The translations under genes were made by a program, and so were the position numbers. A stretch of 19,756 bases of DNA from Candidatus Odinarchaeota archaeon (lineage in GTDB: Archaea; Asgardarchaeota; Odinarchaeia; Odinarchaeales; Odinarchaeaceae): assembly GCA_038826135.1 (NCBI GenBank), contig JAWBON010000020.1, positions 1-19,756 on the forward strand, given 5' to 3'. Position 1 is the first letter of the stretch, and the number at the start of each line of letters is the position of its first letter. Below, in pieces: positions 1,654 through 19,756 of the stretch. The notes beneath the pieces are model-generated. The model saw nothing but the letters and a program-made list of their open reading frames with translations. It was not told the origin of the DNA and did not search any database.

Positions 1654-1802
1654 GTTATGAAACTTGAGTAACTGAATACAAACTATATTATTAATCTTTG
1701 CGTTTACATTCTTAGCGTAAATCCCTTATAAAAATTATCACATCCTATAGTATGTGTTAAAGATAGAATATTTTTAGCTTAGTATGCTCTGGTCTTGAAA
1801 GA

Positions 1803-2891: not shown

Positions 2892-2916
2892 CCATTAATA
2901 TTTGAAGATTTAAGGA

Positions 2917-4690: not shown

Positions 4691-4776
4691 AAGATCATGC
4701 CAAACAGATTAATTATGTTTTAAACTGTTAAATAATAAGCTGATTTTATTTATAATCTATGTTAAAGAGGTTAAAA

Positions 4777-4794
4777 AATCAGCGGCAGCTGATT
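4777..4794 (-). terminator. Perfect 7-bp hairpin followed by a T-tract downstream of rps2
   Basis: Minus strand AATCAGC-TGCC-GCTGATT then TTTTAACC, 24 nt after the rps2 stop. Function is inferred from position only. Confidence 0.4.
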
Positions 4795-4818
4795 AATATA
4801 AAGCAGGGGATGAATATT

Positions 4819-5463: not shown

Positions 5464-5494
5464 CTCCAGACTTCTATATTCATAATCTATGTGA

Positions 5495-5510
5495 TTTATA
5501 AAGCTTTTAT
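5495..5510 (-). promoter_or_regulatory. Putative internal BRE/TATA promoter for rps2
   Basis: TTTATAAA at 5495-5502, preceded on the minus strand by purine-rich ATAAAAGC, about 32 nt upstream of the rps2 start in the rpoN-rps2 spacer. Confidence 0.45.
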
Positions 5511-5512
5511 GA

Positions 5513-5710
5513 TTAGAATTTTATAACATCATCGATTAGGTTAACATGGGATAGTAGCATTCTTCTACAACAATATCTATCGACACCCATCTCGTCTAGC
5601 ACTTTTTTAGGATCTTCACCTTTAAGAACCCTGTCTTTGAATAACTCCCATTTATCAGCGATAAGCTTACCGCATGTGAAACATCTCACTGGAATAATGA
5701 TTTTGAACAC
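5513..5710 (-). CDS. rpoN: DNA-directed RNA polymerase subunit N (Rpo10)
   Basis: [11 protein letters not shown]...[12 protein letters not shown] Zn-binding signature. Confidence 0.98.
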
Positions 5711-5727
5711 CTCCGATAATAATTATT

Positions 5728-6132
5728 TTACCTATAAGATTTCTGCTTCTTAGCTCTAGCGCTTCTCCCTCCGAATTTTTTAGGCTCTGTTCTACGAGAG
5801 TCCCCTGCTAGCAGGGTTCTATCATATTCCAGAAACGCTTTACGCAGTGCTTCATCTTTCTTCCATTGAAAAAGCGCTTTAGCTATCGCTGTTCTCACAG
5901 CGTCAGCTTGACTCATAAAACCTCCACCGCTTACTTTAACATCTATATCTATTTTACTTAGAGGTTTTTCACCAACTAAAATTATAGGCTCCATTATCTT
6001 ATATCTTGCAATAGTGTTACCGTATAATTCTAAAGGTATGCTGTTTATTCGGATTTTACCTGTTCCCTCTTTAATAGTAGCGCGGGCTATCGCCGTCTTT
6101 CTTTTACCGCTTGTTAAAAGAACTTTAGTCAT
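5728..6132 (-). CDS. rps9: 30S ribosomal protein S9
   Basis: [64 protein letters not shown] 6132 preferred over the track start 6147 because of the GAGGGAG SD. Confidence 0.98.
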
Positions 6133-6133
6133 A

Positions 6134-6577
6134 TTAATCTCCCTCATAAACCCAGCCTAACTCTTTTGAAAGCTCTTTTATCGTAATATATTTATTTTTA
6201 AGTTTATCAGCGCTGATGTTTTTTATTGTTTCCACCTCGTTTAATTTCACATCTTCAGGCAAGCCTATGTAAACTCTTAATCTCTTATAGGCTTCTCTAC
6301 CTCTCGCTGTTTTGAAAGGGAGCATACCACGAACTGTTCTCTTTATAATTCTATCCGGTTGCTTATAATGAAATGGTCCTTTCCAAGGCGCTGTAGCTGT
6401 TCTTAAATTAGTTCGACCTCTATATTGCTCTAGCACCTGGTTTCTTTTACCGGAGATAACAGCTTTCTCAGCGTTAATTATAATTATCTTTTCCCCTTCT
6501 AGAAGTCTTTTAGCTATAATACTTGAAAGCCGTCCGAGAATAGCATTCGTAGCGTCAATAATTTTATATTCAGTCAT
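6134..6577 (-). CDS. rpl13: 50S ribosomal protein L13
   Basis: [47 protein letters not shown] 6577 likely; the track start is GTG 6586. Confidence 0.97.
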
Positions 6578-6586
6578 ATAGGCCAC

Positions 6587-6940
6587 CTATTTGAGTAATA
6601 ATACACCTTTCCCTTCAGGATTTTTCTCAACATACTCAGCTAGACTTATATATTTTGAACCTGATTTGGAGAGTTTGGTTAAAGCTGATTGAGATATGCT
6701 AACAGCGGTTAGGATGACTTTTTTAGTTAAATCGCCGCGCCCTAGAATTTTTCCAGCAACGGCTATAACAGAGTTGTCTACCGCAAGCCTGTTTATTTTA
6801 TCTAGGTTAACCTGGGGGCGAAGACGCCTAGGCTTGGATAATTGTTCCGCTATTGTAAGCCAGACATTCGCCTTCTTCTTTTTTAACTTTACTATTAATT
6901 CTTGAATATTTTGATCAGTTGGACCTGTAGGCTTAACCAT
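6587..6940 (-). CDS. rpl18e: 50S ribosomal protein L18e
   Basis: PRRLRPQVNLDKINR, VAGKILGRG, KNPEG; TAATG overlap with the rpoD stop. Confidence 0.95.
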   Translation of the reverse strand: MVKPTGPTDQNIQELIVKLKKKKANVWLTIAEQLSKPRRLRPQVNLDKINRLAVDNSVIAVAGKILGRGDLTKKVILTAVSISQSALTKLSKSGSKYISLAEYVEKNPEGKGVLLLK

Positions 6941-7773
6941 TATTTATCAACCTCGGCTTTTCCGGCCACTATACTACGGAGCTCTATTAATTTACTATCG
7001 AAGATGTTTAAAGCTTCTAAAACTATTCTTTCAGGCGGGAGCGCCCCCGTGGACTCTACTGTGAATATCAGCTTGTTTTTATCATATGATACGTTGATAG
7101 CCTTAGACTTGCATTTATTCACGCATTCAAGACAGAGTATACAATCATCTACATTTTCAAGTATGAGCTTGTTTTTTTCCATTTTAAATATTTTTTTAGG
7201 GCATTCGGAGACACAGTCACCGCATAGATTACATTTCTCGGTGTCTAATTCAATAATAGGTTTATATTTATAGAAACAGGCGGACACAGGCTCCCATTTT
7301 GCATGTTCTTTACCTGTCCCTAGTCTAGCATAGGCTTCTAGTGTAAGGCGCTGGCCACGCTGCATTTTAGTTATCGGTATATTAGGGCTCACGGGGATAA
7401 TATTATTATCATCCGATTTAAGATCACCTGAGAGAACGGTTTCATTTTCACCTTCAGCTTTTCTATCCAGTGATAGTGTTACCTGGCATCTAGAGCAGCC
7501 TACTCCTTGGCAGCTACACTTATCTTTAGGCACATAATTGTCAAGGTCTGTTTTCAAAGGGATTAAACCCAGTCTGTGAGCTATTATTTCATCGAATAGA
7601 GGGCTTGTATTCTCCGCTACGTATATTTCTTCTATAGCCATAGTTGGCACCTCCGAGATCATTATACGTCTCAGAGAGTTCGCTATAGAGGCGTCTAAAT
7701 CCTCTAGAGTGAAGCGGAGTTTATCGCCGTTTCTAACAAGATCTTTAACATTCAATACACGTTCACCATACAA
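6940..7773 (-). CDS. rpoD: DNA-directed RNA polymerase subunit D (Rpo3) with a 2x[4Fe-4S] ferredoxin-like insert
   Basis: ANSLRRIMISEVPTMAIE, NTSPLFDEIIAHRLGLIPL, GTGKEHAKWEP, FTVESTGALPP; two CxxCxxCxxxC motifs plus CSCQGVGCSRC. Confidence 0.98.
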   Translation of the reverse strand: MYGERVLNVKDLVRNGDKLRFTLEDLDASIANSLRRIMISEVPTMAIEEIYVAENTSPLFDEIIAHRLGLIPLKTDLDNYVPKDKCSCQGVGCSRCQVTLSLDRKAEGENETVLSGDLKSDDNNIIPVSPNIPITKMQRGQRLTLEAYARLGTGKEHAKWEPVSACFYKYKPIIELDTEKCNLCGDCVSECPKKIFKMEKNKLILENVDDCILCLECVNKCKSKAINVSYDKNKLIFTVESTGALPPERIVLEALNIFDSKLIELRSIVAGKAEVDK

Positions 7774-7807
7774 TAATAGTGTATGCGATAATCGTATAAA
7801 CTATATT

Positions 7808-8323
7808 TTAACTTTTCTGATTTAATCTATCAAACAGGGTTAATGCGCTACTCACACTGTCTGTTTGCGGTATGTACGGTTTGATATCTATAACAGGGGA
7901 GCCGTTAATCGCATCCAATCCTTTAACATACAGAATAGTACCTTTTCTATTAAGCAGTCTGACCACGCTTAAACCGATAGGGTTAGGTCTATTCTGGGCT
8001 CTTGACGCTAAAACACCAACTTCAGGAAGTGAAGGGTCGCCTTTTAAATGCACTTTTAAAGGTTTACCGAGTTCTTTTCTAAGATTGTGAAAATAGTATA
8101 AAACTATAATATGCGAGTGAAACTCTATTTTATAAAGCGCTTCCTCCAGATCAGGGTGGATTATAATTTCAACTGTTAAGTTTCTACTCTCCTCGGAATT
8201 TAACTGCCCACTGTTTTCAGAGCGTATGAAACCTATAGGCTTTAGCGCTATACGGGTTTTTTCAATTTTTCTAATATAATCAATTATAGATTGAGTGTTA
8301 GTAGACGCGGGCGGGTTACACAT
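7808..8323 (-). CDS. tsaA: tRNA m6t6A37 methyltransferase TrmO/TsaA family (true start probably downstream of 8323)
   Basis: LKPIGFIRS, HSHIIVLYYFH, GVLASRAQNRPNPIGLSVVRL, LDAINGSPVIDIKPY. Confidence 0.88.
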   Translation of the reverse strand: MCNPPASTNTQSIIDYIRKIEKTRIALKPIGFIRSENSGQLNSEESRNLTVEIIIHPDLEEALYKIEFHSHIIVLYYFHNLRKELGKPLKVHLKGDPSLPEVGVLASRAQNRPNPIGLSVVRLLNRKGTILYVKGLDAINGSPVIDIKPYIPQTDSVSSALTLFDRLNQKS

Positions 8324-8399
8324 AACATCACCTTTAAAACCGCTACCGTAATATAATTTCCCAGCTTAAACATTTAGAGTATTAAAATAACCTAGTATT

Positions 8400-9608
8400 T
8401 TAATCCGATGCAACCTTATAATCTGGTTTTTTCTTTATTCTAGCAACACCGCTTTTAATAGCCGCTTTAGCTGTTTCAGAGGCTAATCTAACAACAACTT
8501 TTTTATTCAGCATAGATGGTAAAATATTATCTTCCGAGAGCTCGCTATCTGGAATAATGCTTGCTAACGCCTTAACCGCCGCCATCTTCATCTCCATGTT
8601 TATAGTTTTCGCTCTAGTATCCAGAGCCCCCCGAAATATTCCAGGGAAAACCAGCGAATTATTTACTTGATTCGGTAGATCTGATCTGCCTGTTGCTACA
8701 ATTTTCGCACCTGCTTTTTTAGCTTTATCAGGCATTATCTCCGGCACAGGGTTGGTTAATGCGAATACTACAGCATCCCGGCTCATCACCATTATATGTT
8801 CCGGTTTAATCAAATTAGGGATTGTGCTTAACCCTATTACAACATCCGCGCCTTTTAACGCAACCTCGAAGTTTCCTTCCACACTCTCCTTATTTACAAT
8901 TTCAAGAATTTCTTTTTTCTCAGGGTCTAGGTCACTTCTCCCACGGTGAATTATACCTTTACTATCACATAGTATTATGTTTCTACACCCTGCTGTGTGA
9001 AGGTATTTAGTAACCGAGATACCTGCTGCACCTGCCCCTATGACAACAGCTTTGATACCGGTGATTTTTTTGCCGACTATTTTTAGACTGTTTAATAAGG
9101 CTGCTAAGGTTACAATCGCTGTACCGTGTTGATCATCATGGAATACCGGGATTTCAAGCCTTTTTTGAAGCTCGCTTTCTATCAAGAAGCATTTAGGTTT
9201 CTCAATATCCTCTAAGTTGATACCTGAAAAGTTGGGGGCTATTGCGAACACTGTGTTTATTATTTCAACAGGCTCCTTAACTTTCAAAGCGAGCGGGATT
9301 GCGTTTATTCCAGCGAATAATTTGAATATAACAGATTTACCTTCTAAAACAGGTATACATGCTAAATCTCCTATATTACCCAGACCTAAAACTCTTGACC
9401 CATCGGAGATAACAGCGATAGTGTTCTCTTTAGCTGTAAACTCATATACTTTATCGGGTTTTTCAGCGATTAAACTGCATGGGGCGGCTACACCTGGGGT
9501 GTATATTAAAGACAGGTCACGCATCGATTTCACGTCTACACGCGGTGTTAACTCGATCTTGCCTTTAAGGATTTTATGAAGCTTAATTGAATCTTTATAA
9601 GTGTCCAT
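8400..9608 (-). CDS. NAD(P)-dependent malic enzyme (short prokaryotic type)
   Basis: YTPGVA, SDGSRVLGLGNIG, EGKSVIFK, NLEDI, FHDDQHGTAIV, GAGAAG, ATGRSDLPNQVNNSLVFPGIFRGALD. Confidence 0.95.
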   Translation of the reverse strand: MDTYKDSIKLHKILKGKIELTPRVDVKSMRDLSLIYTPGVAAPCSLIAEKPDKVYEFTAKENTIAVISDGSRVLGLGNIGDLACIPVLEGKSVIFKLFAGINAIPLALKVKEPVEIINTVFAIAPNFSGINLEDIEKPKCFLIESELQKRLEIPVFHDDQHGTAIVTLAALLNSLKIVGKKITGIKAVVIGAGAAGISVTKYLHTAGCRNIILCDSKGIIHRGRSDLDPEKKEILEIVNKESVEGNFEVALKGADVVIGLSTIPNLIKPEHIMVMSRDAVVFALTNPVPEIMPDKAKKAGAKIVATGRSDLPNQVNNSLVFPGIFRGALDTRAKTINMEMKMAAVKALASIIPDSELSEDNILPSMLNKKVVVRLASETAKAAIKSGVARIKKKPDYKVASD

Positions 9609-9643
9609 TATTGATTCGCCTGTTAAATTATAAGAATTGTATG

Positions 9644-9651
9644 AAAAAAAA
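9644..9651 (-). terminator. Oligo(U) archaeal-type terminator after fibrillarin
   Basis: Run of 8 T on the minus strand, 8 nt past the flpA stop. Confidence 0.4.
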
Positions 9652-9659
9652 TCTAAAAC

Positions 9660-10352
9660 TCATTGTTTCTTTAATGAGCCGAGTATAAAAATGTGATCGG
9701 AAGTGTATGGTTCAAGTCTTAATTTCTGTTTTATGAGGAAACCGTTTTTCTCTAAAAATTCTATTTCACCTTTAAATATCTCCGCCGGGGGTTTCGTAAC
9801 ATCTATCGACCTTGCTTTTATCGTTATCATAATGTTTCCAGCAGGTTTAAGGTACAGGCGAGCGTTATCGACAAGTATTTTTGATTGATCCGGTTGAGCT
9901 ACATCGCAGTAAATTATGTCAACTAAGCCGCAGAGCGGGGAATATCTATCAGGGAACCGAGCGTCAGCTAATATGGGAAGCATGTTTTTCCTATCTTCAC
10001 ATATTGTAGTAAGATCTCGTATAGATCTGGGAGAGAATTCTATACAGTATAATCTACCCTGGTTTCCTATTATATCAGATATGTGACTGCATGTTGTACC
10101 TGAAGCGGCGCCGAGATATAATATATGAGAGCCTTCTCTTACAGGAAGCTCCTCCAGCCCGTTTAGAAGAGCGGCGGCTAATTTGCTTCTAAAAGGATCC
10201 CATGTTCTAAGCTCTTCATTTCTGAATTTTATTAATATTTCATCGTATACTTTTTTACCTGGTGTAAGGTTGATTGTAGCTAAGAAACGTTTACCTGTAT
10301 CGTTAACTTGATATATTCCAGTGAAATTTTTAAACTCTGATATCTCAATCAT
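9660..10352 (-). CDS. flpA: Fibrillarin-like rRNA/tRNA 2'-O-methyltransferase
   Basis: NLTPGKKVYDE, WDPFRSKLAAA, LYLGAASGTTCSHISD, DVAQPDQ, KARSIDVT, LEPY..DH; directly downstream of nop5. Confidence 0.98.
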   Translation of the reverse strand: MIEISEFKNFTGIYQVNDTGKRFLATINLTPGKKVYDEILIKFRNEELRTWDPFRSKLAAALLNGLEELPVREGSHILYLGAASGTTCSHISDIIGNQGRLYCIEFSPRSIRDLTTICEDRKNMLPILADARFPDRYSPLCGLVDIIYCDVAQPDQSKILVDNARLYLKPAGNIMITIKARSIDVTKPPAEIFKGEIEFLEKNGFLIKQKLRLEPYTSDHIFILGSLKKQ

Positions 10353-10362
10353 TTATTTCACT

Positions 10363-11604
10363 TCATCTCCTCTTTTTACTTAAAACTTTTTTAGAAAGTT
10401 TAATTTTTTCTTTCCGGCTTGTTTTTGTTTTCTTAGTTTTTTCAGGCGGATTCCTATATTTTTTCTTAATCTCCGATATTCTCTTATCTAGAGCGTCTGA
10501 GATGTTCATGTTAATATTAGGTGAATAATAGTCGAGGCGGGCGGCTATGGCGAGCTTCCCTGCTAATGCCCTAGCTATTTTCCCCCTCTGCCATTTCGGA
10601 GCATTATGGATAAGGGGATGCTGAAATATTATACCGTGTTTGGGTGGTCTATCACCTGATTTTAAATATGTGAAAAGAGCCTTCTCTGCACCTAGTATTT
10701 GAATTTTACTAGCTGGCATTTTTGCAAGGTTAGCTAAACCGCCTGCTAAGCTGATTAATCTAGCTCCAAGGGTTGAGCCGGCTAAAGACTTGATATTAGG
10801 TGAAACCTCCTCCATAGCTTGATCTATGTAGTCTTCTAGACGTGTTCTTGTTTCAAATTCGTTGACTATCATGTTAGCATATAATTTTATAATGTTGATA
10901 TCGTTCGGTATCAGATTGGCTCCTAAACTTTTAGAAACAGAGTTTATTATTAACTCAGCCCTTTTATCAGGGATACCTAATTCCACAAGTTTTTGAAGAG
11001 TGAGGTTTTCTTTAAACCCTATTTCACTTATAATTTTACTATATGTTTGATGGTTGGATACCAGGTCATTAATTTCAGGGAAGTGGAGACTAAACCATTC
11101 TCTAAGTCGGGATGCGTTTAAATTAAGGTTTTTATCTAGGTCGTTCAGCGCTTCTATAGCTTGAACGATTAGCATATCTCGCCTAGAGGCGGATACTTTA
11201 ATTTTCTCGCTAGTATATGTTAAGCAGATTTTATTAAGAAACTTGTTAACTTCAACAGAGCTTTTAAAACCACCGTAGCTGGTTAGTAGACTATCGTAAT
11301 CAGCTTTAACTTTTACGGTTACATTATTATTTTTTTCTAAGACTATTTTTAGGTCTTTAGCAGCCACGGTTTTTTTAATAAGCTCGTATAATTGTTCAGT
11401 GTCGCATATTATTGTTGAATAATTATTAGATAAAAGTTCACTCAAGATTTCTTCAGCTTCAGATAGTTTCTTACCGTTCTCAATATCTAGTATTTTATGT
11501 GCAATCAGCTGGGGGTTTAATTCAAATCTTTTAATCCCCACTAATATATTAGATTCGTTAAAAGCCATAAACCCTAGGGGTGTTAAAGACAGGTATGCTT
11601 TCAA
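10363..11604 (-). CDS. nop5: C/D box methylation guide RNP protein Nop5 (Nop56/58 homolog)
   Basis: RLREWFSLHFPE, SPNIKSLAGSTLGARLISLAGGL, PASKIQILGAEKALF, PPKHGIIFQHP, RGKIARALAGKLAIAARLD, Lys-rich tail; TTG start after a GGTGG SD. Confidence 0.97.
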   Translation of the reverse strand: MKAYLSLTPLGFMAFNESNILVGIKRFELNPQLIAHKILDIENGKKLSEAEEILSELLSNNYSTIICDTEQLYELIKKTVAAKDLKIVLEKNNNVTVKVKADYDSLLTSYGGFKSSVEVNKFLNKICLTYTSEKIKVSASRRDMLIVQAIEALNDLDKNLNLNASRLREWFSLHFPEINDLVSNHQTYSKIISEIGFKENLTLQKLVELGIPDKRAELIINSVSKSLGANLIPNDINIIKLYANMIVNEFETRTRLEDYIDQAMEEVSPNIKSLAGSTLGARLISLAGGLANLAKMPASKIQILGAEKALFTYLKSGDRPPKHGIIFQHPLIHNAPKWQRGKIARALAGKLAIAARLDYYSPNINMNISDALDKRISEIKKKYRNPPEKTKKTKTSRKEKIKLSKKVLSKKRR

Positions 11605-11704
11605 CTTTCAACCACCTTTCAATAGAGAAGTAATAATAGCTAATTAACTTTTACACGTTTTTTTAATCTTTATTTTAGTTAAGCCTATTTAATAACTTAA
11701 CAAG

Positions 11705-12586
11705 TTATAATTCTCTTAATCTATCTATCAATTTAATAAACTCATTAAATTTTCTATTATTATCTGCTATAGGGAAGCTGAATATAACCTCTGAGACACC
11801 GATTTTCTTTAATTCAATCACCCGTTTTTCAAAATCATCAATTGAGCCGGTTAACCCGAAGTAATCGGTTAAAAAGTCTTCCATATTTTTTATTCCCGTA
11901 ATATCCTTCTCTGAATAATGCTTCCTAATTTCTTGAATTTGTTCAACTATCTTTAATTCTAAGGCTATTCTGGCAGGCAACTCTGCAGCTATGAAGGCAC
12001 ATATCCTTAAAAACTTATTTAACCCGTTTTCACCGGGCAAATAAGATACGGGGCCTATTGCTAAAACCCTGTTTTTCAACCGGGTTCTTTCAATAACTAA
12101 TTTAATAATTTTAGGAGATAATGAATTAATTATCACCCCGTCAAATTCTTGGCCTAGTTTTTTTATAGTATTAAATCCGATAGCGCCCAAGTACACTGGT
12201 AGACCTAGATTGAAAACCTCTCTGTATATTTGTAGATAGCGTTCAAATAATTCAAGTGTTTTAACATTCGTCTTACCTATTTTTTCTAAGTGTTTATCAC
12301 CGCCTCTTCCTAAACCTATTATAAATCTTCGACCAAACGTATCCTGTAACAATTTGAAGGCTTGAAACAATTGGAATGGCCTATGCATGTGAACTGAGAT
12401 TATAGAGGTACCTATCATTATATTACTAGTTTTACAGGCTACTGTAGCTAGAACAGGATAGATATGACGGTGTTCCGGGCCTTCACCTAACCAGATACTG
12501 TCAACGCCAGCTTTCTCTATTATCACACATTTTTTAACCAGCGTTTTAATATCGCTTACCCCATCTATATTTAATCCTATTTTCAA
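11705..12586 (-). CDS. Divergent, shortened Mer-like LLM-class F420-dependent oxidoreductase
   Basis: Luciferase-like barrel pattern (AGVDSIWLGE, FIIGLGRG, PVYLGA, DGVIINS) with Mer-like C-terminal blocks (ICAFIAA, FGLTGSIDDF, GVSEVIFSFPI). The canonical Mer WITDH motif is absent. TTG start 1 nt after the upstream stop. Confidence 0.8.
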   Translation of the reverse strand: MKIGLNIDGVSDIKTLVKKCVIIEKAGVDSIWLGEGPEHRHIYPVLATVACKTSNIMIGTSIISVHMHRPFQLFQAFKLLQDTFGRRFIIGLGRGGDKHLEKIGKTNVKTLELFERYLQIYREVFNLGLPVYLGAIGFNTIKKLGQEFDGVIINSLSPKIIKLVIERTRLKNRVLAIGPVSYLPGENGLNKFLRICAFIAAELPARIALELKIVEQIQEIRKHYSEKDITGIKNMEDFLTDYFGLTGSIDDFEKRVIELKKIGVSEVIFSFPIADNNRKFNEFIKLIDRLREL

Positions 12587-12587
12587 T

Positions 12588-13586
12588 TTATTTTCTCCAC
12601 AAGTTTTCAGGTCGCATAATTTGAATGACTTTAAACGGTTTTGAACCGAATGGCGGGCCTATTATAACCTCATCTATACCCATATTTTTTATTTTAAAAA
12701 AAGTCTCTTTGATTTCATCTATAGCGCCGAAAATACAGAATTCACGGATTAGATCATCTGTTACATATTCCATAGCCGCGGCTTTATGACCTTTAAAAAA
12801 CTCTGAGCGGATTAGACTAGTTAATTCTTTATCTAAGCCTAGCTCATTTAATAGTGAACTACTCATACTGGAGATTATCGTTAAAACCACGTCTTTAGCT
12901 AATTTCAGGTCACCCGCATCTTTTGATAGAATGAATCCGTTCCAAAGTATTTTCCGGATGTGGCTAGGATTACGCCCCGCTTTAAAAGCTGATTTTTCAA
13001 CTATGTTTACGGATTTATTTAGTGTTTTTAAAGGGGTGCTGAAAATAACCCCGTCAGCGATTCGCCCAGCTAATTCAAGAAGTTTCGGACCTCTAACTCC
13101 TAGAAAAATCGGGATAGAGCATTTTGCAAATGAGAGTTTGAAATCCACTAGCTTCTCATCATGATCTTCGAAATCAACAGGCTCTTGATTGAATATTTTT
13201 TTTAGAGCAGTAACAGTGTTCTGGAGTTTGCTTATAACGTTTACCGGATTTAAGCCTGTTAAACTCTTCACTTCAACGCTTCCGCCAACTCCCAGTCCTA
13301 AAATAAAATTATTTTCAGTTATTTCACATAACGTAAGAGAGGCTGAAGCTATTGTGGAGAGAGGGTATACGTAGGGGCTTATAACCCCTAACCCTATTTG
13401 AATGTTTTTTACATGATTAGCTATTATAGAAGTGTATGTAAACACCTCTGCTTTAAGTATGTCGTCTCCAACCCATATCGTGGAGTAATTGCTTTTATCA
13501 GCCTTTACAGATAATTTTAAAGACAGGTCTACAGGTATACCCGTAGTTACCCCGAGCGATATATCAGGTAGATGAGTTTTTCTCAT
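12588..13586 (-). CDS. Mer-like (5,10-methylene-H4MPT reductase subfamily) LLM-class F420-dependent oxidoreductase
   Basis: IGLGVISPY, FILGLGVG, IPIFLGVRGPKLLELAGRIADGVIF, KAGRN, VTDDLIREFCIFG, GIDEVIIGPPFG are all collinear with Mer; WVGDD replaces WITDH. Confidence 0.85.
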   Translation of the reverse strand: MRKTHLPDISLGVTTGIPVDLSLKLSVKADKSNYSTIWVGDDILKAEVFTYTSIIANHVKNIQIGLGVISPYVYPLSTIASASLTLCEITENNFILGLGVGGSVEVKSLTGLNPVNVISKLQNTVTALKKIFNQEPVDFEDHDEKLVDFKLSFAKCSIPIFLGVRGPKLLELAGRIADGVIFSTPLKTLNKSVNIVEKSAFKAGRNPSHIRKILWNGFILSKDAGDLKLAKDVVLTIISSMSSSLLNELGLDKELTSLIRSEFFKGHKAAAMEYVTDDLIREFCIFGAIDEIKETFFKIKNMGIDEVIIGPPFGSKPFKVIQIMRPENLWRK

Positions 13587-13609
13587 TAAAAGAGTATTAT
13601 ATTATCTTA

Positions 13610-14377
13610 CTATTGATAAGATTTTTCAGATATCTGCAGTCTGAGAACATCCGTTTTGACAAGTGCAGTTATTATAAGAGCGGCGAATATGGATTGAGCT
13701 GCTCTTATTAAAATGTAAAGGTACGGGTATATTAAGAAGTAGAATCTAACTGTCTCAACCGACATGCCGAAGATTCCATTGTAAACTAACGGGTAGGAGA
13801 ACACGACGGTGCCTAGAAGATTATCTAGTATATTACCTACAAGGGCTATTAGGAAGATTACGAGGAAACCGTATTTAACAGGGTTGGTAGAGTTAAGCGG
13901 TTTAATCTTGTTAAAAACGTGTAGGGCAGGATAAAATAGGAGTAGACCGATTATTTTATCGTATAATACGGCTACTGTTTCAATCGGGTATGATGTTGGA
14001 GGCCATAGGGGTGGGGATATTATTTGCAGTATTATTAAAATAATATAGGTGAGGGTTACTGCTATTAACGCTGTTCTATGTTTCTTATAAACGATTACGC
14101 CTATGAAGAGAGCATTAACAGCAGGGTTGAATAAGAAGGGTAAGCCGAATATGCCGCTGCCGAGTATAAGCCATGAGACAACCGACCCTAGGAGGGCTGT
14201 TAGAAATCCGATGTACGGTCCTAGTAGAACTCCTATTACAACTGCGAATCCGGCTTCGAACTGGATTTCAACACCGGGGGCGACTGGGATCCCTGGTAGT
14301 ATTGATATTACAACATATAGTGCCGCTATTAACGCGATTAGGGTTATGTTATATGTAAAGTTATTTTTTCTAATCAT
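13610..14377 (-). CDS. ECF-type transporter substrate-binding (S) component, substrate unknown
   Basis: About 7 hydrophobic segments; TM1 has AxxxA (ALIAA), followed by VIGVLLGPYIGFLTALLGS, typical of ECF S-components. ATG 14377 preferred because the track start 14425 would cover the divergent promoter. Confidence 0.75.
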   Translation of the reverse strand: MIRKNNFTYNITLIALIAALYVVISILPGIPVAPGVEIQFEAGFAVVIGVLLGPYIGFLTALLGSVVSWLILGSGIFGLPFLFNPAVNALFIGVIVYKKHRTALIAVTLTYIILIILQIISPPLWPPTSYPIETVAVLYDKIIGLLLFYPALHVFNKIKPLNSTNPVKYGFLVIFLIALVGNILDNLLGTVVFSYPLVYNGIFGMSVETVRFYFLIYPYLYILIRAAQSIFAALIITALVKTDVLRLQISEKSYQ

Positions 14378-14423
14378 GTACAACACTATGTAAATTAATA
14401 CATTGCAGTGTAGTTTATTACAC
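14369..14423. promoter_or_regulatory. Array of three palindromic TGTA-N6-TACA sites with a 20-bp period (putative operator)
   Basis: TCTA-ATCATG-TACA (14369-14382, 1 mismatch), ATGTA-AATTAA-TACAT (14388-14403), GTGTA-GTTTAT-TACAC (14408-14423). They lie just before a TATATAAATA box (14428-14437) in the ECF-S/wHTH divergent spacer. Confidence 0.6.
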
Positions 14424-14458
14424 ATGATATATAAATATTTCCCAGATAAATATAGTAG

Positions 14459-14968
14459 ATGGTGGAAACTATGAGTAAGAACGACATATGGCCTTATGTA
14501 ATGATACTACCAGGCTCTAAAAACGAGCTTAAAAAAATGTTTAACATATTATTCAGATCCAATATACCTTTAGAGATAGTCGCATTATTCGATAATTTTG
14601 AAAAAATATACCAGTCGGATATTATAAAAAAATTTAAGTCGCATTCGAATAAATCCGTTTTAAACCATCTTAAACAATTAGTTGATACTAGAATTTTAGA
14701 AAGCGGGATAGAAAAAATTAAAAAAGATCATAGAAGTTTTTGGGCTAAATGGTACAAGCTCACCAGTATAGGTCGTTACATATTATCGATATTCAACCCG
14801 AAAATCGATAATGAAAGAGTGAGAGTTTTGATTAAAGAATTATTCAACATCTATGTTACAAAGGTGATAAAAATAGCCGGAGACTACGGGATCAGCTTAG
14901 ATGAGTTAAACAGTCTTTTTAAAGAAGCTTTAGAGAAATCGACAGGTGAGATAAAACATGTCAAGTGA
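14459..14968 (+). CDS. Winged helix-turn-helix transcriptional regulator (ArsR/MarR-like fold) with C-terminal helical domain
   Basis: IYQSDII...SNKSVLNHLKQLVDTRIL (recognition helix), wing WAKWYKLTSIG; overlaps mptD by 11 nt. Confidence 0.75.
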   Translation: MVETMSKNDIWPYVMILPGSKNELKKMFNILFRSNIPLEIVALFDNFEKIYQSDIIKKFKSHSNKSVLNHLKQLVDTRILESGIEKIKKDHRSFWAKWYKLTSIGRYILSIFNPKIDNERVRVLIKELFNIYVTKVIKIAGDYGISLDELNSLFKEALEKSTGEIKHVK

Positions 14969-15341
14969 AGATGAAGCGAAGAGGTTTTTCCCACAGGATT
15001 TAACGGATAGAGATAGAGCTGTTTTCGAAGCTGGAGTAAAAATCGGTGCGGTATACCATCAGTTTATTGGAGCGCCAATACCGCGTGAAAAAAAGAGTTT
15101 AAAAATATTAGAGGCCGCTATAGAGGAAAGCGTGAAAACACAGCCATGGGTTAAAAACGTTAAGGTGAGTTTAAAGCCGAGAATTCGAAGAGGAGCGTAT
15201 AGTTACGATGAAATCTCTAAAAATAACATAACTGTTTGGTTAAACATAAAATATAATACAGTTGAGGTTGAAGCCGTCTTAAAATATAATGAGGAACTAA
15301 AATATCCTTTAGCTTATATAAAAAATATTAAAAAATTTTGA
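14958..15341 (+). CDS. mptD: Archaeal dihydroneopterin aldolase MptD
   Basis: LTDRDRAVFEAGVKIGAVYHQFIGAP, LEAAIEESVKTQPWV, YNEELKYPL match the MptD (MJ0408-type) family signature. Confidence 0.9.
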   Translation: MSSEDEAKRFFPQDLTDRDRAVFEAGVKIGAVYHQFIGAPIPREKKSLKILEAAIEESVKTQPWVKNVKVSLKPRIRRGAYSYDEISKNNITVWLNIKYNTVEVEAVLKYNEELKYPLAYIKNIKKF

Positions 15342-15342
15342 A

Positions 15343-16167
15343 TCACTTAGGCTTCTCTAAAAGCTTCAGCTTCTTAAGAAGTTTACCGTTTACATCGTGA
15401 GGTTCTCTTAAAAGAGTGTCAGAGTTCTTCTCGATTTCCCTAGCCTCCTCTACTAGTTTAGCAGCTGAAGATAATATTTCATGAGCTGCCGCTGTTAAAA
15501 GCGTGTAATGCTGCCAATCATGAATTTTGAAACAAGCCTCATAATTAATTTTACCCACCAACTCCGCCATTTTAAAAGCGGCTACAGCCTTCACATTAGA
15601 GTAACTATTATTAAAAGGAAGGTTACCAAGCAGAAAAGAGGAGTCTATAACAATATACGGGAGGTTGAGAGATTTTTTATCAAGACTTTCAATCACACCG
15701 TCGATTATTTTAACAATAATTCTGAACACTCCCACGCCTGCCAGCACATCTATAATATTAGAGTTGAAAACCGTCATCTCTGTAGGGTCTAAAAACTCCC
15801 GTCTGGCACCTATCATCGGATCAGCTGTTATAATAATATATCCCACACCCTTATTTTTAAGATCTTCAATTATTTTTAAAGACGGAGAGTCGCTTATCAA
15901 TATCAACGGGCTGCCAGTACTTCTAAGCTTTTCAATAACGGTCACGCAATGGCTTAGAGTAGCGTTAGGTGTTATTAGAATAGTTAAATCATGCGGCCAC
16001 TTCACCAAGTCACTAATATTATCCTCTAAATGAGGCCCCACCATCTTAGAGCCTGAGCCGAAAACTCTGAATAGAATATTTTCCCGTTCAGCTCTCTCAT
16101 CGAATAGAAACTCGAACAGGGGAGATACTCCCAGATTACCCATTTTTAAAACAGCGATTTTAAACAT
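15343..16167 (-). CDS. mtd: F420-dependent methylene-tetrahydromethanopterin dehydrogenase
   Basis: KMGNLG, DERAERE, GSGSKM, ADPMIGARREFLDPTEM, AAHE, EAREIEK...LREPH. ATG 16167 preferred; the track start is 16185. Confidence 0.95.
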   Translation of the reverse strand: MFKIAVLKMGNLGVSPLFEFLFDERAERENILFRVFGSGSKMVGPHLEDNISDLVKWPHDLTILITPNATLSHCVTVIEKLRSTGSPLILISDSPSLKIIEDLKNKGVGYIIITADPMIGARREFLDPTEMTVFNSNIIDVLAGVGVFRIIVKIIDGVIESLDKKSLNLPYIVIDSSFLLGNLPFNNSYSNVKAVAAFKMAELVGKINYEACFKIHDWQHYTLLTAAAHEILSSAAKLVEEAREIEKNSDTLLREPHDVNGKLLKKLKLLEKPK

Positions 16168-16354
16168 GGATAAGATTATTCTCAAACTATTTTAAAAGCG
16201 TATTTCATACTTTAATTAATATTAACATTAAAGAAGGAACGTCTTCAGATAATAAGATAAATAAGATTTAGAAATAATTATTTACTATATTTGCTCCTGA
16301 TATTTAAGTGAAAAATCAGGGTAATACTTATTATCTATGGTGGGAGGGTTAAAT

Positions 16355-17212
16355 ATGCCTCTTAAAAACCAAGTGAACACGAGTGGGAGAAAGGGTTTAA
16401 TAGGTGTTATAGGAGGGTCGGGTTTCTATAAACTCTTAGAGGACGCCGAGTTAAAGATTATTGAAACACCTTTTGGGCCTTCCCCACCCTTATCAATAGG
16501 TTACATAGGAGAGGTTGAAGTTGTATTCCTACCCAGACATGCTAAGCCTTCTGATGATAAAATAAGCCATTCTATCCCGCCACATGCAATAAACTATAAA
16601 GCTAACATATTTTCATTACACAAGTTAAATGTTCAGAGAATTATCGCCACCCACTCCTGCGGTAGTATGAAAAAGATCATTAAGCCGGGTAGACTCGTTC
16701 TGCCGGATCAGTTCATAGATATGACTAAAAGAAGAGATTCTAGTTTCTTTAACGGTGATGGATATTGGAAACCGGATTTGAAAACCACGGTTGATGCCCT
16801 CCATGTGGATGTTACAAAACCATTCTGTCCTGAATTAAACCAAATAATATACAGTGTGTGCGGTGAGTTTGGCGCCAAACCTTTACTGAGAGGGGTTTAC
16901 GTTTGCACAGAGGGGCCTAGGTTTGAAACACCGGCGGAGATTAAATTCTTTAAGATGATCGGAGGGGATATTGTAGGCATGACACTTATACCGGAGCTTG
17001 TATTAGCCCGTGAGCTGGGCATCTGTTATTCTTCAATATCCCTTGTCTCAAATTACGCTGCAGGAGTCTCTGAGGAGAAGGTAACATTTAAAGAGGTTAT
17101 AACCGGATTTGAAAAAAACAGGGATTTACTATTTAAGATTTTAAAAAAGGCAATCACTAGAATACCGGTAGAGAAAAGCTGCGGATGTGGTAGTAACCTA
17201 AAAGAGTGTTAA
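16355..17212 (+). CDS. MTAP/PNP-family nucleoside phosphorylase, probably 6-oxopurine or methylthioinosine-specific
   Basis: IGVIGGSG, FLPRH, PPHAINYKANI, PDQFIDMT, EGPRFETPAE, VGMT, SNYAAG; GGGAGGG SD before ATG 16355. Confidence 0.9.
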   Translation: MPLKNQVNTSGRKGLIGVIGGSGFYKLLEDAELKIIETPFGPSPPLSIGYIGEVEVVFLPRHAKPSDDKISHSIPPHAINYKANIFSLHKLNVQRIIATHSCGSMKKIIKPGRLVLPDQFIDMTKRRDSSFFNGDGYWKPDLKTTVDALHVDVTKPFCPELNQIIYSVCGEFGAKPLLRGVYVCTEGPRFETPAEIKFFKMIGGDIVGMTLIPELVLARELGICYSSISLVSNYAAGVSEEKVTFKEVITGFEKNRDLLFKILKKAITRIPVEKSCGCGSNLKEC

Positions 17213-17233
17213 CAGTAATCCCGGAATATTTCA

Positions 17234-17953
17234 TCAAACATACATTCCCTTATTTCCTTCAGTGTCTCTAACTTCCTGCTGCTCTATTACCTCTCTCAAT
17301 TCTTTTTCAATAGTCTCTGCGTCGCTTAACAATTGCTCTGTGTTAATGTCCAAACCGCATATTTTATTAATAACTTTAATAGCGTTTGACGCAGCCCGTG
17401 GATCAGGTCTGCCCTGCTCAGCGTACGGTAACAGCGCTATTCCAGGAAAATTATTAATTTCAAAATACATTAACATAAGCGCTAAAGGACCGGTGACGAA
17501 GAGGCCTTTCTCCAGTGTCTGAACTCCGAGTTCACCGGAGTTTAAACTATATCTTTTAGTGTGAATGCATCTTACTATACTATCATCTTCCTGTTGGAAT
17601 CTATTATCTAAGCCGCCTACGAGAATAGCTTGTTTAAAACCAGAATTAACCACCCATTCAGCTATAACCTTACTGAATGCTTTCTGCTCTAGTCTATGAG
17701 GTTGGAAACGGCACATTAACAGTATAATATCCTTGTACTCGTAGAATTCAAATGGGAACACTAAACGCTTTTCATCCATACCTACAAAAGAGGGGTTCAG
17801 TTCAGAGTCAACATAGCCTATGTAACTGGCGTCTAAAGTCTCAACAATATGTCTTGTTGTAATGTAGCCTGTGACACCTATCCCGTGGAATCCGGTTATA
17901 AAAGTACAGTCTTTATAATTCCTCTGAGATTTAATATTTATAGATATACTCAA
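17234..17953 (-). CDS. PAC2-family proteasome assembly chaperone/activator (PbaA/PbaB-like)
   Basis: ITGFHGIGVTGYIT, ILVGGL, GPLALML, PDPRAASNAI...L.I.TEQLL..AE.IE; C-terminal GMYV (HbYX). Confidence 0.88.
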   Translation of the reverse strand: MSISINIKSQRNYKDCTFITGFHGIGVTGYITTRHIVETLDASYIGYVDSELNPSFVGMDEKRLVFPFEFYEYKDIILLMCRFQPHRLEQKAFSKVIAEWVVNSGFKQAILVGGLDNRFQQEDDSIVRCIHTKRYSLNSGELGVQTLEKGLFVTGPLALMLMYFEINNFPGIALLPYAEQGRPDPRAASNAIKVINKICGLDINTEQLLSDAETIEKELREVIEQQEVRDTEGNKGMYV

Positions 17954-18068
17954 TAAACCACCCCGGAAACAAAAAGGTTAAAATATTTTCTCTCATCTAA
18001 TTTTGTAAAGTTCAAAAAAGAAATCACTAATAATTAATATAAGAGTTTCTATTAGATGGTGCGGTTTA

Positions 18069-19331
18069 ATGGGTAAAATTACATGTTTAGGCGCTTGCCA
18101 AGAGGTGGGTGGTTCAGGTTTTCTTATAAACGCTAACAATCGAACTATTCTACTCGATTATGGAATCTATCTTAGAAGGAAAAACCCCTTCCCTATAACT
18201 GTAGCCCCGAAAGATGTGGATGCTATTTTTCTAAGCCACGCACACTTAGATCATTCAGGTGCACTTCCTCTGATGTATATTACCGGTAATCCTCCTATTT
18301 ACGCTACTAAAATTACTATGGAGGTTTTAAGAGTATTACTTGAAGACTACCTGAATATTTCAGAGGCGATTCTACCATATGATGAAAGTGAAATAGATAA
18401 TATTAGAGAAAACCTTGTTAAAACAATGTACGGTGACATGGTTAACGTGGGTGATGGTTTCAATATAACTATTATCGATGCGGGTCATATTCCTGGAAGC
18501 TATATGGCGTTAATCGAGGTGAATAATAGAAAAATCCTTTATACAGGGGATATGAATATTAAAGACACGCTTCTAGTAAACGGTACTAAACCTAATTTAC
18601 CTGAAATAGATTATTTAATAATAGAGAGCACTTATGCTTTAACTAATCATCCACCTAGAGAGGAGCTTGAAAGAGAGTTCGTTAATTCCATTAATGAAGT
18701 TGTCGAAGGCGGCGGGGTTGTTTTAGTCCCAGCCTTCGCTCTTAGTCGAAGCCAAGAGGTTTTATGTATTTTGAAAAAACATGGTTTTAAACATCATGTT
18801 ATACTGGATGGTATGGCTAGAGAAATAAGTAGCATATTTCTCAAGCACCCTAAATATTTCAGAGATTTTAAACTGTTAAGAGAAGCTCATAGCGCCGTGG
18901 ATTATGTTAACGGTCGTAAAGACAGGGAGATAGTTGTTAAACAGGGAGGGGTTATTATATCTCCAGCTGGGATGTTAAGCGGTGGTGCTGCATTATACTA
19001 TGCTAGGCAAATAGCTAACAGTGATAAGCATGCTATATTCATAGTAGGCTATCAGCTACCTAGCACTCCTGGAAGAATTTTATTAGAAACTAAGAAGCTG
19101 CCTTTCAACGGAGGATTATTAGACGTAAAATCACAGATTAAATATTTTGATTTTTCAGCGCATGCTGGACGTGAAGAGCTCACCGAGTTTATTAAAAACA
19201 CCCCTGGTAAACCAACAGTGATACCGATTCACGGTGAACCTGAATCCTGTAGAACATTAGCGGAGTTTGCGAGCGGGGAACTGGGGTTAAACACGTTTTT
19301 ACCGAAAAACGGTGATGTTATTGAAATATAG
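18069..19331 (+). CDS. KH-less beta-CASP metallo-beta-lactamase ribonuclease (aCPSF2/aCPSF1b-like)
   Basis: LLDYG, HAHLDHSG, AGHIPGS, YTGD, IESTY, PAFALSRSQE, GMLSGG, FSAHAG, IHGE; 420 aa with no N-terminal KH domains. Confidence 0.92.
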   Translation: MGKITCLGACQEVGGSGFLINANNRTILLDYGIYLRRKNPFPITVAPKDVDAIFLSHAHLDHSGALPLMYITGNPPIYATKITMEVLRVLLEDYLNISEAILPYDESEIDNIRENLVKTMYGDMVNVGDGFNITIIDAGHIPGSYMALIEVNNRKILYTGDMNIKDTLLVNGTKPNLPEIDYLIIESTYALTNHPPREELEREFVNSINEVVEGGGVVLVPAFALSRSQEVLCILKKHGFKHHVILDGMAREISSIFLKHPKYFRDFKLLREAHSAVDYVNGRKDREIVVKQGGVIISPAGMLSGGAALYYARQIANSDKHAIFIVGYQLPSTPGRILLETKKLPFNGGLLDVKSQIKYFDFSAHAGREELTEFIKNTPGKPTVIPIHGEPESCRTLAEFASGELGLNTFLPKNGDVIEI

Positions 19332-19374
19332 GTGTATAGGCTGATTTTAAATCACTGGTAAAGCGGGTAGTTGA

Positions 19375-19756
19375 ATGAATTATAAAAACCTGTTATCTAA
19401 ACTAGACCAGTGTTTTCTATTTTTAACATTTCCAGTTTTAAGTTTTCTAATATCATCCCTTTGGACAGCTCTACTAATACCCGCTGACATAACATATTTC
19501 ACACAACTTTTACCCGAGTATGGGTTAAATATCACATGGAGCATATTCTACGCTACGATATTTATTATAATAGCGTTAGTATCAGCTTTTATAATCTATT
19601 ATTTGATAGAGAAGAATAAGGAATTAATTTTAAAATATCTTCTGGGGTTCTGTATCTCCTTTGTTATAATTATAATACTTCCAATGTATACTTCAATTAT
19701 ACTCGGATGGCTTAACTTAGATCTGCTAGCCTCCATGATGATATTCTCATCATCTA
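19375..19756 (+). CDS. 5'-partial polytopic membrane protein, possibly a presenilin/SPP-like (A22) intramembrane aspartyl protease
   Basis: Own translation, not in the ORF track: open from ATG 19375 to the window end (127 codons), MNYKNLLSKLDQCFLFLTFPVLSFLISSLW...ATIFIIIALVSAFIIYYLIEKNKELILKYLLGFCISFVIIIILP...; about 4 TM segments. The CDS is well supported, the family call is tentative because catalytic motifs would lie beyond the window. Confidence 0.6.
   Translation, partial: MNYKNLLSKLDQCFLFLTFPVLSFLISSLWTALLIPADITYFTQLLPEYGLNITWSIFYATIFIIIALVSAFIIYYLIEKNKELILKYLLGFCISFVIIIILPMYTSIILGWLNLDLLASMMIFSSS

Follow-up and report, generated by a model that had tools for sequence, protein, structure and literature searches.

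A predicted operator-controlled ECF S-component of Odinarchaeia and its possible role in the salvage of methanopterin-type pterins

A block of six genes on a contig of Candidatus Odinarchaeota archaeon (JAWBON010000020.1, positions 1 to 19,756, this whole stretch of 19,756 nucleotides being referred to below as the window) raises the question of what might be taken up, and under what control, by a predicted vitamin-type membrane protein encoded among enzymes of tetrahydromethanopterin (H4MPT) chemistry. The protein resembles the S-components of energy-coupling factor (ECF) transporters, and its gene heads an operon that also codes for two luciferase-like (LLM) proteins related to Mer. Divergent from this operon lies a gene pair coding for a winged helix-turn-helix (wHTH) protein and the archaeal dihydroneopterin aldolase MptD, towards which mtd, the gene for the F420-dependent methylene-H4MPT dehydrogenase, converges. 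A preliminary description of the same DNA had regarded the block as a regulon for the uptake and conversion of a pterin or of F420. The analysis reported here favours a narrower answer, to which we assign a probability of about 0.55: the locus would code for an importer under the control of a repressor, by which a methanopterin-type pterin, or a late precursor thereof, is salvaged, and in Odinarchaeia the importer gene would share its transcript with those for two Mer-like F420 enzymes acting on the cargo. What we infer in this answer is the substrate and the effector, as well as the direction of regulation and the chemistry of the LLM proteins. By way of contrast, the conserved core of the system is a matter of observation, consisting of the S-component gene and a double operator, with the wHTH encoded either beside them or elsewhere in the genome.

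A predicted S-component of a distinct archaeal clade and its operator

The S-component gene occupies positions 13610..14377 of the reverse strand. Its open reading frame (ORF) extends to 14425, and both its homologues and a 92%-identical protein of 255 aa agree in placing the likely start at M17 (14377) rather than at 14425. Searches of curated families gave a top Pfam match to PF07155, the riboflavin-type S-component family (42.0 bits; cut-off 26.7), and a further match to PF12822 that lay under its cut-off (26.4 bits; 30.7). The best NCBIfam model was that of the FolT family, TIGR04518 (44.5 bits; cut-off 60), and the RibU equivalog NF010182 scored 29.2 bits, under its cut-off of 99. The closest solved sequences were likewise the folate S-components FolT 4z7f (E 2e-4) and 5d3m. 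With an AlphaFold2 model of the protein (pLDDT, the predicted local distance difference test score, of 86.5) as query, the top 23 Foldseek matches in the PDB were S-components without exception, as were 25 of the first 26, with FolT in first place, the matches themselves being weak (best E 4.8e-3; template modelling (TM) score up to 0.68 on the target). The concern that the protein might cluster with a family of unrelated known specificity was thus allayed, the nearest relatives being folate S-components, albeit at a score under the family cut-off. The clade to which it belongs is a distinct archaeal one of ~250 aa, which is longer than the classical ~180-aa S-components by virtue of extra C-terminal helices, and carries strongly conserved polar motifs of its own (DK, GNQ.DN and VYNGIFG) that are atypical of the shorter proteins.

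A shared transport motor, which the preliminary description had listed among the genes to be sought, is present in the host genome (1.26 Mb, 93% complete): contig C43 codes for an EcfA-EcfA'-EcfT set in which two genes for ABC ATPases accompany one for CbiQ/EcfT, no S gene adjoining them, and a separate CbiMNQO set is located on contig C6. When the S-component was modelled in complex with the genome's own EcfT, its helices 1 and 3 were placed on the coupling helices of the partner. The docking value was 0.76 compared with 0.00 for the best control, at least 91% of contacts were common to the separate runs, and the partner was modelled with a pLDDT of 81. In calibration, 58 of 80 solved complexes attained the corresponding mark, as did 2 of 110 mismatched pairs. 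Since solved structures of ECF complexes exist, a pass of this kind establishes likeness to them and not binding. The protein is most likely the regulated S-component of a vitamin-type importer.

Two perfect TGTA-N6-TACA palindromes are located between the divergent operons. The first, O1 (14389..14402), lies in the core-promoter region of the S-component operon; the second, O2 (14409..14422), is situated exactly 20 bp from O1 and abuts the TATA and B recognition element (BRE) region of the wHTH gene, for which a TATA-like sequence, TATATAAATA, is present at 14428-14437, ~25 bp ahead of the start of that gene. A third, imperfect half-operator (14369..14382; TcTA-N6-TACA, with one mismatch) follows at the same 20-bp distance from the next site, and overlaps the probable start codon of the S-component gene. 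Such a placement of O1 and O2 would be the customary one where archaeal repressors act by promoter occlusion. No Rfam match was recorded between 14200 and 14600 at E values up to 1, and a riboswitch or other RNA element was consequently set aside, the intergenic region behaving as a pair of DNA palindromes.

The pair O1/O2 is the sole double site in the 1.26-Mb genome, in which single TGTA-N6-TACA sites are also rarer than expected (15 as opposed to ~40); the search for further members of the regulon by way of additional double sites therefore yielded none. At the start of the S-component gene, four Odinarchaeum genomes and three Baldrarchaeia retain the double site with the same spacing and position, and a second family of the Odinarchaeum order retains it with a single mismatch in each half. 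On a wider scale, the operator precedes members of the S-component clade in 51 of 62 GTDB species loci drawn from Asgard archaea and Bathyarchaeia, mostly the latter. Its density within 260 bp around the gene start was 3.2 per kb, whereas the 812 kb of DNA flanking the loci gave 0.005 per kb, and all four of the matches in those flanks precede a second, paralogous S-component gene. Genome-wide pattern searches recorded a single site in a closed Odinarchaeum genome and a single site in a 91%-complete Baldrarchaeia genome of 20 contigs, each at the promoter of the S-component gene.

The operator also occurs where the S-component does not. In a closed Asgard genome from another family, devoid of the S-component (G040), a perfect double operator (C1:1101558-1101591, corresponding to L133:1501-1534) was located 20 bp upstream of mptG, the identity of the downstream ORF being indicated by a score of 342 bits on the model for beta-RFAP synthase (MptG). 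The same genome encodes a fusion of the wHTH to a PfkB kinase elsewhere (C1:2320621-2321064), ~14 kb from its mtd gene. A second site in G040, with one mismatch, was discounted as it may be a chance occurrence, a reversed-pattern control also giving matches at that stringency.

Separately, one of the single sites in the host genome (C16:284-297) is followed after 23 bp by the gene for a second, CofE-like (F420_ligase) paralogue (C16:320-1033). The Baldrarchaeia cluster described below likewise includes a CofE-like gene (L022:3829-4728), and the site on C16 may represent either a further member of the regulon or a chance occurrence.

The candidate regulator

The wHTH gene (14459..14968, forward strand) codes for a stand-alone protein of 169 aa in which a winged helix is followed by a C-terminal helical hairpin. 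No Pfam family scored above its cut-off with this protein. However, its assignment in the preliminary description as a wHTH protein was confirmed from three other sources: an AlphaFold2 model based on 36 homologues (pLDDT 88.9) exhibited a helix bundle, a long beta-hairpin wing and the C-terminal helical hairpin; Foldseek matched the model to MarR, PadR and ArsR regulators with a probability of 1.0 (TM 0.35-0.42 over the whole chain); and a profile search gave a match to AdcR (E 3e-4).

An exhaustive HMMER search recovered just 73 clusters of this family, of which approximately half are fusions of 440-480 aa to a PfkB kinase. The divergent pairing of S-component and wHTH genes recurs, at 35-42% identity, in Baldrarchaeia and in the second family of the Odinarchaeum order, and in both the wHTH constitutes the N-terminal domain of a PfkB fusion of ~477 aa. 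The best curated model for the fusion partner was ribokinase TIGR02152 (150 bits, under its cut-off). The stand-alone PfkB of the host genome is found in a purine cluster with purE, purB and purD.

Co-occurrence extends to genomes in which the two genes are separated. Among 121 Bathyarchaeia genomes of at least 85% completeness, the wHTH was present in all 13 of those carrying a strong homologue of the S-component, in 26 of the 31 carrying a homologue of any tier, and in 21 of the 90 carrying none. Five Bathyarchaeia genomes that were tested have exactly one wHTH each, which in three of the five is located on another contig or ~1 Mb away. ORFs of ~170 aa beside the S-component gene at loci L030 and L027 were considered as wHTH homologues and rejected, BLASTP giving E values greater than 3 and one of the two proving to be an HD-domain protein.

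All six ORFs of the block were recovered at the positions given in the preliminary description, and the spacings reported there were borne out: gaps of 23 nt between the S-component and first LLM genes and of 1 nt between the two LLM genes, an overlap of 11 nt between the wHTH gene and mptD, and a distance of 1 nt between the stop codons of mptD and mtd, which converge. On account of the 11-nt overlap, mptD is probably co-transcribed with the wHTH gene. Conservation of the neighbourhood in relatives was likewise confirmed, the block being syntenic throughout Odinarchaeia. In three further Odinarchaeum genomes it is colinear, in the order mtd, mptD-wHTH, the divergent ECF-S-LLM-LLM operon and nop56-fibrillarin. 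It is syntenic also on three more divergent Odinarchaeia contigs, on which the S-component is just 49-60% identical, and the wHTH-mptD pair is retained in every Odinarchaeia locus examined. Since the synteny holds in both near and divergent Odinarchaeia, the six-gene arrangement is not attributable to chance.

Synteny of this kind is also what would be expected if the genes shared no function at all, being merely inherited neighbours in a conserved region of ribosomal and Nop56 genes, with the palindromes an ordinary feature of their promoters. The housekeeping character of the surroundings (Nop56, fibrillarin and ribosomal proteins) accords with that explanation, as do the separate orientation of mtd and the failure to detect an operator in front of it. 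However, the pairing of S-component and operator is maintained across two phyla in many different neighbourhoods, the operator is unique in whole genomes, and the wHTH co-occurs with the S-component even when encoded on another contig or ~1 Mb distant. The absence of a shared function is accordingly considered extremely improbable, and has been largely refuted. The proposal that the genes form a single pterin regulon nevertheless stands only in part: the conserved operator ties the wHTH to these genes, and mtd converges on them in an orientation of its own, no such site having been detected ahead of it.

Gene context, pathway content and the cargo

The neighbours of the S-component clade were counted over 68 species loci. 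A divergent CitG-like gene was present in 30 of these, a downstream gene for a nucleotidyltransferase-like (NTP_transf_2-like) protein of ~340 aa in 28, the wHTH in 27, fwdDBAC in 16-18, mch in 13 and mptG in four. The enzyme encoded by the last of these, MptG, is responsible for the first committed step in the synthesis of methanopterin (PMC8305020). In Bathyarchaeia the S-component gene is found divergent from DUF447-mptG-mptH, and a second-tier paralogue is found convergent on DUF447-mptG-dmrX-mptH. The products of these operons were confirmed above the curated cut-offs as MptG (TIGR00144), DmrX (TIGR02700; 275 bits against 251) and the MJ0301-type dihydropteroate-synthase-like protein MptH (TIGR00284; 379 bits against 257). 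In Baldrarchaeia the S-component/wHTH pair is located among a CofE-like gene, ftr, a canonical mer (445 bits), mtd and fwdDB, so that mtd neighbours the module in Baldrarchaeia as it does in Odinarchaeia.

Some individual arrangements deserve to be recorded in their own right. At L123:9434-10277, and also at L055-L057 and L089, DUF447-mptG-mptH is flanked by two S-component paralogues, 28% identical to each other, each with its own operator. At L073:6961-11874 and 27 other Bathyarchaeia loci (among L054-L121), mch-fwdCABD is accompanied by a CitG-like gene divergent from the S-component gene and then by one to three NTP_transf_2-like paralogues, for which no NCBIfam name was obtained. At L029:514-1482 a metagenomic ORF of 322 aa joins a clade S-component to the last ~70 residues of Mch, with a CitG-like gene following it; this is probably a gene remnant or a miscall, although it brings the clade once more alongside a gene of H4MPT chemistry.

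CitG/CitX chemistry consists of a triphosphoribosyl transfer followed by phosphodiester formation. By analogy, the CitG-like and NTP_transf_2-like proteins are candidates for the ribose-phosphate and hydroxyglutarate steps in assembly of the methanopterin side chain. Along the same lines, the presence of these neighbours, together with the ribokinase-like domain fused to the wHTH, suggests that lineages other than Odinarchaeia may rebuild the ribose-containing part of the side chain.

The tight pairing with CitG-like and nucleotidyltransferase-like genes, in 28-30 of the 68 loci, also lends itself to the explanation that the membrane protein is not an importer but a membrane-bound part of methanopterin biosynthesis or handling, either an anchoring subunit or an exporter, acting with those two proteins. 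The extra C-terminal helices and polar motifs unlike those of ~180-aa S-components would be consistent with such a role, as would the location of the gene next to mptG in genomes able to make the cofactor. It is nonetheless improbable, given that the sequence and fold match S-components only, that a shared EcfAA'T module is available onto which the protein was docked in models by the usual helices, that the clade is enriched in genomes devoid of MptG and MptH (vide infra), and that Odinarchaeia have no nucleotidyltransferase-like partner.

The phyletic pattern bears more directly on the salvage importer that we favour. In a sample of 61 Asgard genomes, with clade membership set at E <1e-40, the S-component was confined to three families (f1, f2 and f15), comprising that of Odinarchaeum, its sister family and Baldrarchaeia. 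All three have Mtd, whereas neither MptG nor an MptH-type enzyme was detected by family model in any of their 11 genomes, one closed genome included. Conversely, the Asgard families that have MptG also have MptH, and are without the S-component. In Bathyarchaeia a similar relationship was recorded, MptG being present in two of the 13 strong carriers compared with 56 of the 108 other genomes (Fisher p = 0.017).

The survey of one-carbon, mpt and cof genes advocated in the preliminary description gave a corresponding result for the host genome itself. It retains Fwd subunits, Ftr in two copies, Mch and Mtd, as well as a Mer-like gene whose score narrowly misses the cut-off, and it also has MptA-like, MptD and MptE-like genes, CofD and CofE. 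No match to MptG or to an MptH-type enzyme was obtained by family model, and CofH was not found. Searches with Bathyarchaeial protein queries detected no DUF447 and no nucleotidyltransferase-like partner, and only weak partial matches to DmrX. The MptE-like gene is divided between the ends of two contigs (C38:4-345 and C5:25-246), and on C5 it is followed by cofE, a gene resembling those for NAD kinases and, farther on, a short-chain dehydrogenase/reductase (SDR) gene with that for a dihydropteroate synthase (DHPS), and gcvT, an arrangement amounting to a second pterin/F420 neighbourhood.

Since the key genes for making methanopterin are missing, these archaea may depend on neighbouring organisms for it, and the scavenging of a cofactor envisaged in the preliminary description is, where a methanopterin-type pterin is concerned, in keeping both with the genes that surround the clade as a whole and with the lack of MptG and MptH in the carrier lineages. 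As no enzyme is available to effect coupling in the methanopterin branch, an uncoupled arylamine is unlikely to be what is salvaged, and import of an already coupled pterin of the methanopterin type is accordingly the simplest reading. For the same reason a scheme considered because the fused kinase is ribokinase-like, in which ribofuranosylaminobenzene would be salvaged, phosphorylated by PfkB and then coupled, was weakened by the lack of an MptH-type coupling enzyme in f1, f2 and f15.

The other cargo named in the preliminary description, F420 or a related deazaflavin, gained no specific support. An importer of FO, F420 or riboflavin, with the LLM proteins as dependent users of F420, would agree with the riboflavin-type family as the top Pfam match, with the requirement of Mtd, Mer and the LLM proteins for F420, and with the failure to find CofH (FO synthase) in f1, f2 and f15 when CofD and CofE are present in the host genome. 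However, CofH was not found in many other Asgard families either, several of which also have CofD and CofE, and it is missing from CofD-bearing families that have no S-component (f8, f10, f12, f13 and f18). In Bathyarchaeia its presence was not associated with the S-component (0 of 13 against 14 of 108; p = 0.36). Taken with the low RibU score (29 bits against 99), and with neighbours and a shared operator that point to mptG rather than to cof genes, this renders a deazaflavin or flavin cargo decidedly improbable.

A folate-branch cargo calls for fuller consideration, the case for it being opened by the retention in the genome of a canonical, folate-type DHPS. On this account the protein would import folate, dihydropteroate, p-aminobenzoate (pABA) or pABA-glutamate for the DHPS route, the H4MPT-type enzymes would have been retooled to a folate-like carrier, and the wHTH would be a general pterin regulator. 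The proximity to FolT by NCBIfam, by sequence search of the PDB and by fold is in its favour, as are the presence of a canonical DHPS throughout f1, f2 and f15, the location of the S-component gene directly after thyA in some Bathyarchaeia, and the inclusion in the regulon of mptD, which is common to both branches. A precedent exists in haloarchaea, whose Mch and Mer homologues have been argued to work with tetrahydrofolate (PMC8305020). We nevertheless consider a folate-branch cargo rather unlikely. The operator and the gene are tied to the methanopterin-specific DUF447-mptG-dmrX-mptH set and not to folate genes, and the protein lies under the FolT family cut-off. Moreover, DHPS is just as common among the many Asgard families that have no S-component and is therefore no predictor of the gene, whereas the lack of MptG and MptH is one.

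A number of observations weigh against a methanopterin-type cargo and have to be set beside the evidence in its favour. One of these is the DHPS of the host genome, which is canonical (TIGR01496, 235 bits against 162.6) and encoded beside SDR and GcvT. In conjunction with the MptA-like, MptD and MptE-like genes it indicates that the organism can probably make a folate-type pterin, and given such a route, together with the haloarchaeal precedent for Mch and Mer (PMC8305020), import may not be needed. With respect to the protein itself, the best NCBIfam model is that of FolT at a score that excludes it from the family. With respect to context, other members of the clade follow thyA, head a mevalonate operon or adjoin ferritin-like genes, and the wHTH-PfkB form also occurs in Asgard families that have no S-component. 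The two strong Bathyarchaeia carriers that do have MptG have the S-component gene adjoining it. Some carriers lacking MptG retain the CitG-like and nucleotidyltransferase-like genes, which, if these do code for side-chain enzymes, would imply import of an intermediate rather than of the finished cofactor. The division into strong and second-tier homologues was made after a gap in the scores had been seen, and the statistics overstate independence because the lineages are few and related. Finally, absences from the host genome rest on a completeness of 93% and in part on tblastn with distant queries, and those from draft genomes are provisional.

Companion enzymes, proposed mechanism and known systems

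Both LLM genes lie on the reverse strand. LLM_A (12588..13586) codes for a full-length, Mer-like, F420-type LLM oxidoreductase of 332 aa, and LLM_B (11705..12586), the last gene of the S-component operon, for a shortened Mer-like protein of 293 aa. Against PF00296 (cut-off 27.9) they scored 95.8 bits and, over residues 12-125 only, 69.4 bits, respectively. The best solved relative of LLM_A was Mer 1z69 (E 2.8e-35), the next being an F420 LLM at 1.6e-8, and the best solved relatives of LLM_B were all Mer (E 3e-17). The designation of the pair in the preliminary description as Mer-like is therefore sound as regards kinship, but both proteins miss the Mer equivalog cut-offs by a wide margin: with TIGR03555 (348.7) the scores were 139.4 and 71.8 bits, and with NF002619 (276) 160.0 and 85.9 bits, for LLM_A and LLM_B respectively. 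The 'W.TDH' segment of Mer is altered in both, being replaced in LLM_B by 'WLGEG', and LLM_B has in addition an internal deletion of ~27 residues. LLM_B is always paired with LLM_A in Odinarchaeia, and LLM_A-like genes were also recorded near the S-component gene in two Bathyarchaeia loci (L080 and L116). Judged by these sequence relationships, both proteins probably bind F420 and a pterin. As Mer is itself an enzyme that binds methylene-H4MPT, this kinship counts in favour of a methanopterin-type cargo. A better candidate for Mer is encoded on another contig (C9:6050-7108); since it too remains under both curated cut-offs (233 against 348.7 bits and 262 against 276 bits), even the 'canonical' Mer of Odinarchaeum is divergent.

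The two remaining enzymes of the block are less equivocal. MptD (14958..15341, forward strand) scored 115.3 bits on PF04038 (cut-off 25) in a Pfam search, with the whole length of the profile covered. Mtd (15343..16167, reverse strand) scored 313.2 bits on NF002162 (equivalog cut-off 297) and 315 bits on PF01993. Its ORF extends to 16185, and the ATG at 16167 is the probable start, as had been proposed. Elsewhere in the window, an ORF of 221 aa (93-758) corresponds to a nucleoside diphosphate kinase in which the Pfam NDK match stops at residue 139, leaving a C-terminal extension of ~80 residues.

According to the mechanism that we propose, the S-component would capture a methanopterin-type pterin, or a late and already coupled precursor, outside the cell, and would thereafter dock on the shared EcfA-EcfA'-EcfT motor, the genes for which are located on a different contig. 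LLM_A and LLM_B, co-transcribed with it, would probably pair up and reduce or otherwise process the imported pterin. As no DmrX was found with the Bathyarchaeial query, one possible role for the pair is that of a dihydromethanopterin reductase, for example by the F420H2-dependent reduction of imported dihydro- or oxidised methanopterin. The divergently encoded wHTH would bind as dimers to the two TGTA-N6-TACA palindromes 20 bp apart, thereby overlapping both core promoters and repressing the importer operon as well as its own wHTH-mptD operon, until repression was lifted by a metabolite of the pathway. A regulator so placed might balance de novo pterin synthesis against import.

A more far-reaching version of this proposal can be put forward only tentatively, and we regard it as possible rather than probable. 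It holds that methanopterin auxotrophy extends over Odinarchaeia, Baldrarchaeia and a sizeable fraction of Bathyarchaeia, whose H4MPT-dependent one-carbon metabolism would run on a cofactor drawn from the community by way of a dedicated ECF S-component; that the wHTH, with or without PfkB, is the first methanopterin-responsive transcription factor, with an operator common to importer genes and the mptG operon in two phyla; and that the LLM pair of Odinarchaeia is a heteromeric F420H2-dependent reductase that returns the oxidised pterin to the tetrahydro state and thereby replaces DmrX.

A full-text literature search, of incomplete coverage, retrieved no description of a methanopterin transporter or regulator, nor of an association between an S-component and methanopterin. 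An ECF S-component with a local repressor is a system of a known kind; what is new is its predicted cargo, together with the family of the regulator, the operator and the auxotrophy that the system implies. Were the proposal correct, several uncultured archaeal lineages, including relatives of the ancestor of eukaryotes, would rely on their neighbours for a central one-carbon carrier, a concrete nutritional requirement that could guide their cultivation. The proposal thereby supplies methanopterin metabolism with a candidate regulator and regulon and with an operator of 34 bp, and it provides leads on missing enzymes of the pathway, namely the CitG-like protein with its nucleotidyltransferase-like partner, the PfkB domain that resembles ribokinase, and the Mer-like LLM pair.

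Of the systems already characterised, the group II ECF transporter component FolT (Lactobacillus delbrueckii 5d3m/7nnt; Enterococcus faecalis 4z7f) is the closest to the S-component by NCBIfam, by sequence search of the PDB and by fold. It too is encoded by a solitary S gene reliant on a shared EcfAA'T module, the present protein having been docked in models on the EcfT of its own genome through helices 1 and 3, and the substrate of FolT belongs to the same class of pterin-arylamine cofactors. However, the protein described here is archaeal, has ~255 aa with extra C-terminal helices and motifs of its own, and scores 44.5 bits where the family demands 60, and its operator and gene context point to methanopterin and not to folate genes, the substrate being a predicted one.

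For the two LLM proteins the closest solved relative is Mer, the F420-dependent methylene-H4MPT reductase (1z69, 8qpl), with which they share the TIM-barrel class of LLM fold, and from which they are set apart by their scores (139 and 72 bits against 348.7), by the altered 'W.TDH' segment of both and by the deletion in LLM_B. In terms of position, the pair occupies a place in the regulon, beside the S-component, equivalent to that of DmrX, the MJ0208-type dihydromethanopterin reductase. The latter is an iron-sulfur flavoprotein (TIGR02700) of unrelated fold, whose function the pair would, according to our proposal, supply in Odinarchaeia.

The salvage of p-aminobenzoyl-glutamate by AbgT offers a parallel in which a fragment or breakdown product of a pterin cofactor is imported and the cofactor rebuilt. 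AbgT belongs to another transporter family, and the MptH-type coupling enzyme that would be needed for a fragment to be recoupled is lacking in Odinarchaeia.

With respect to regulation, the nearest counterparts are RbkR, NadR and BirA, bifunctional vitamin regulator-enzymes that control genes of uptake or biosynthesis. The kinase family represented here is PfkB, and the Odinarchaeum wHTH, for which DNA binding is predicted, is without a kinase and probably shares its transcript with mptD instead. In RbkR, an archaeal fusion of a wHTH to riboflavin kinase, as in the bacterial NadR and BirA, a DNA-binding domain is joined to an enzyme of the pathway, an arrangement matched by the fusion to PfkB of about half of the present wHTH family, and at the Odinarchaeum locus, in further resemblance to these systems, the gene for the regulator adjoins a transporter gene that carries a palindromic operator.

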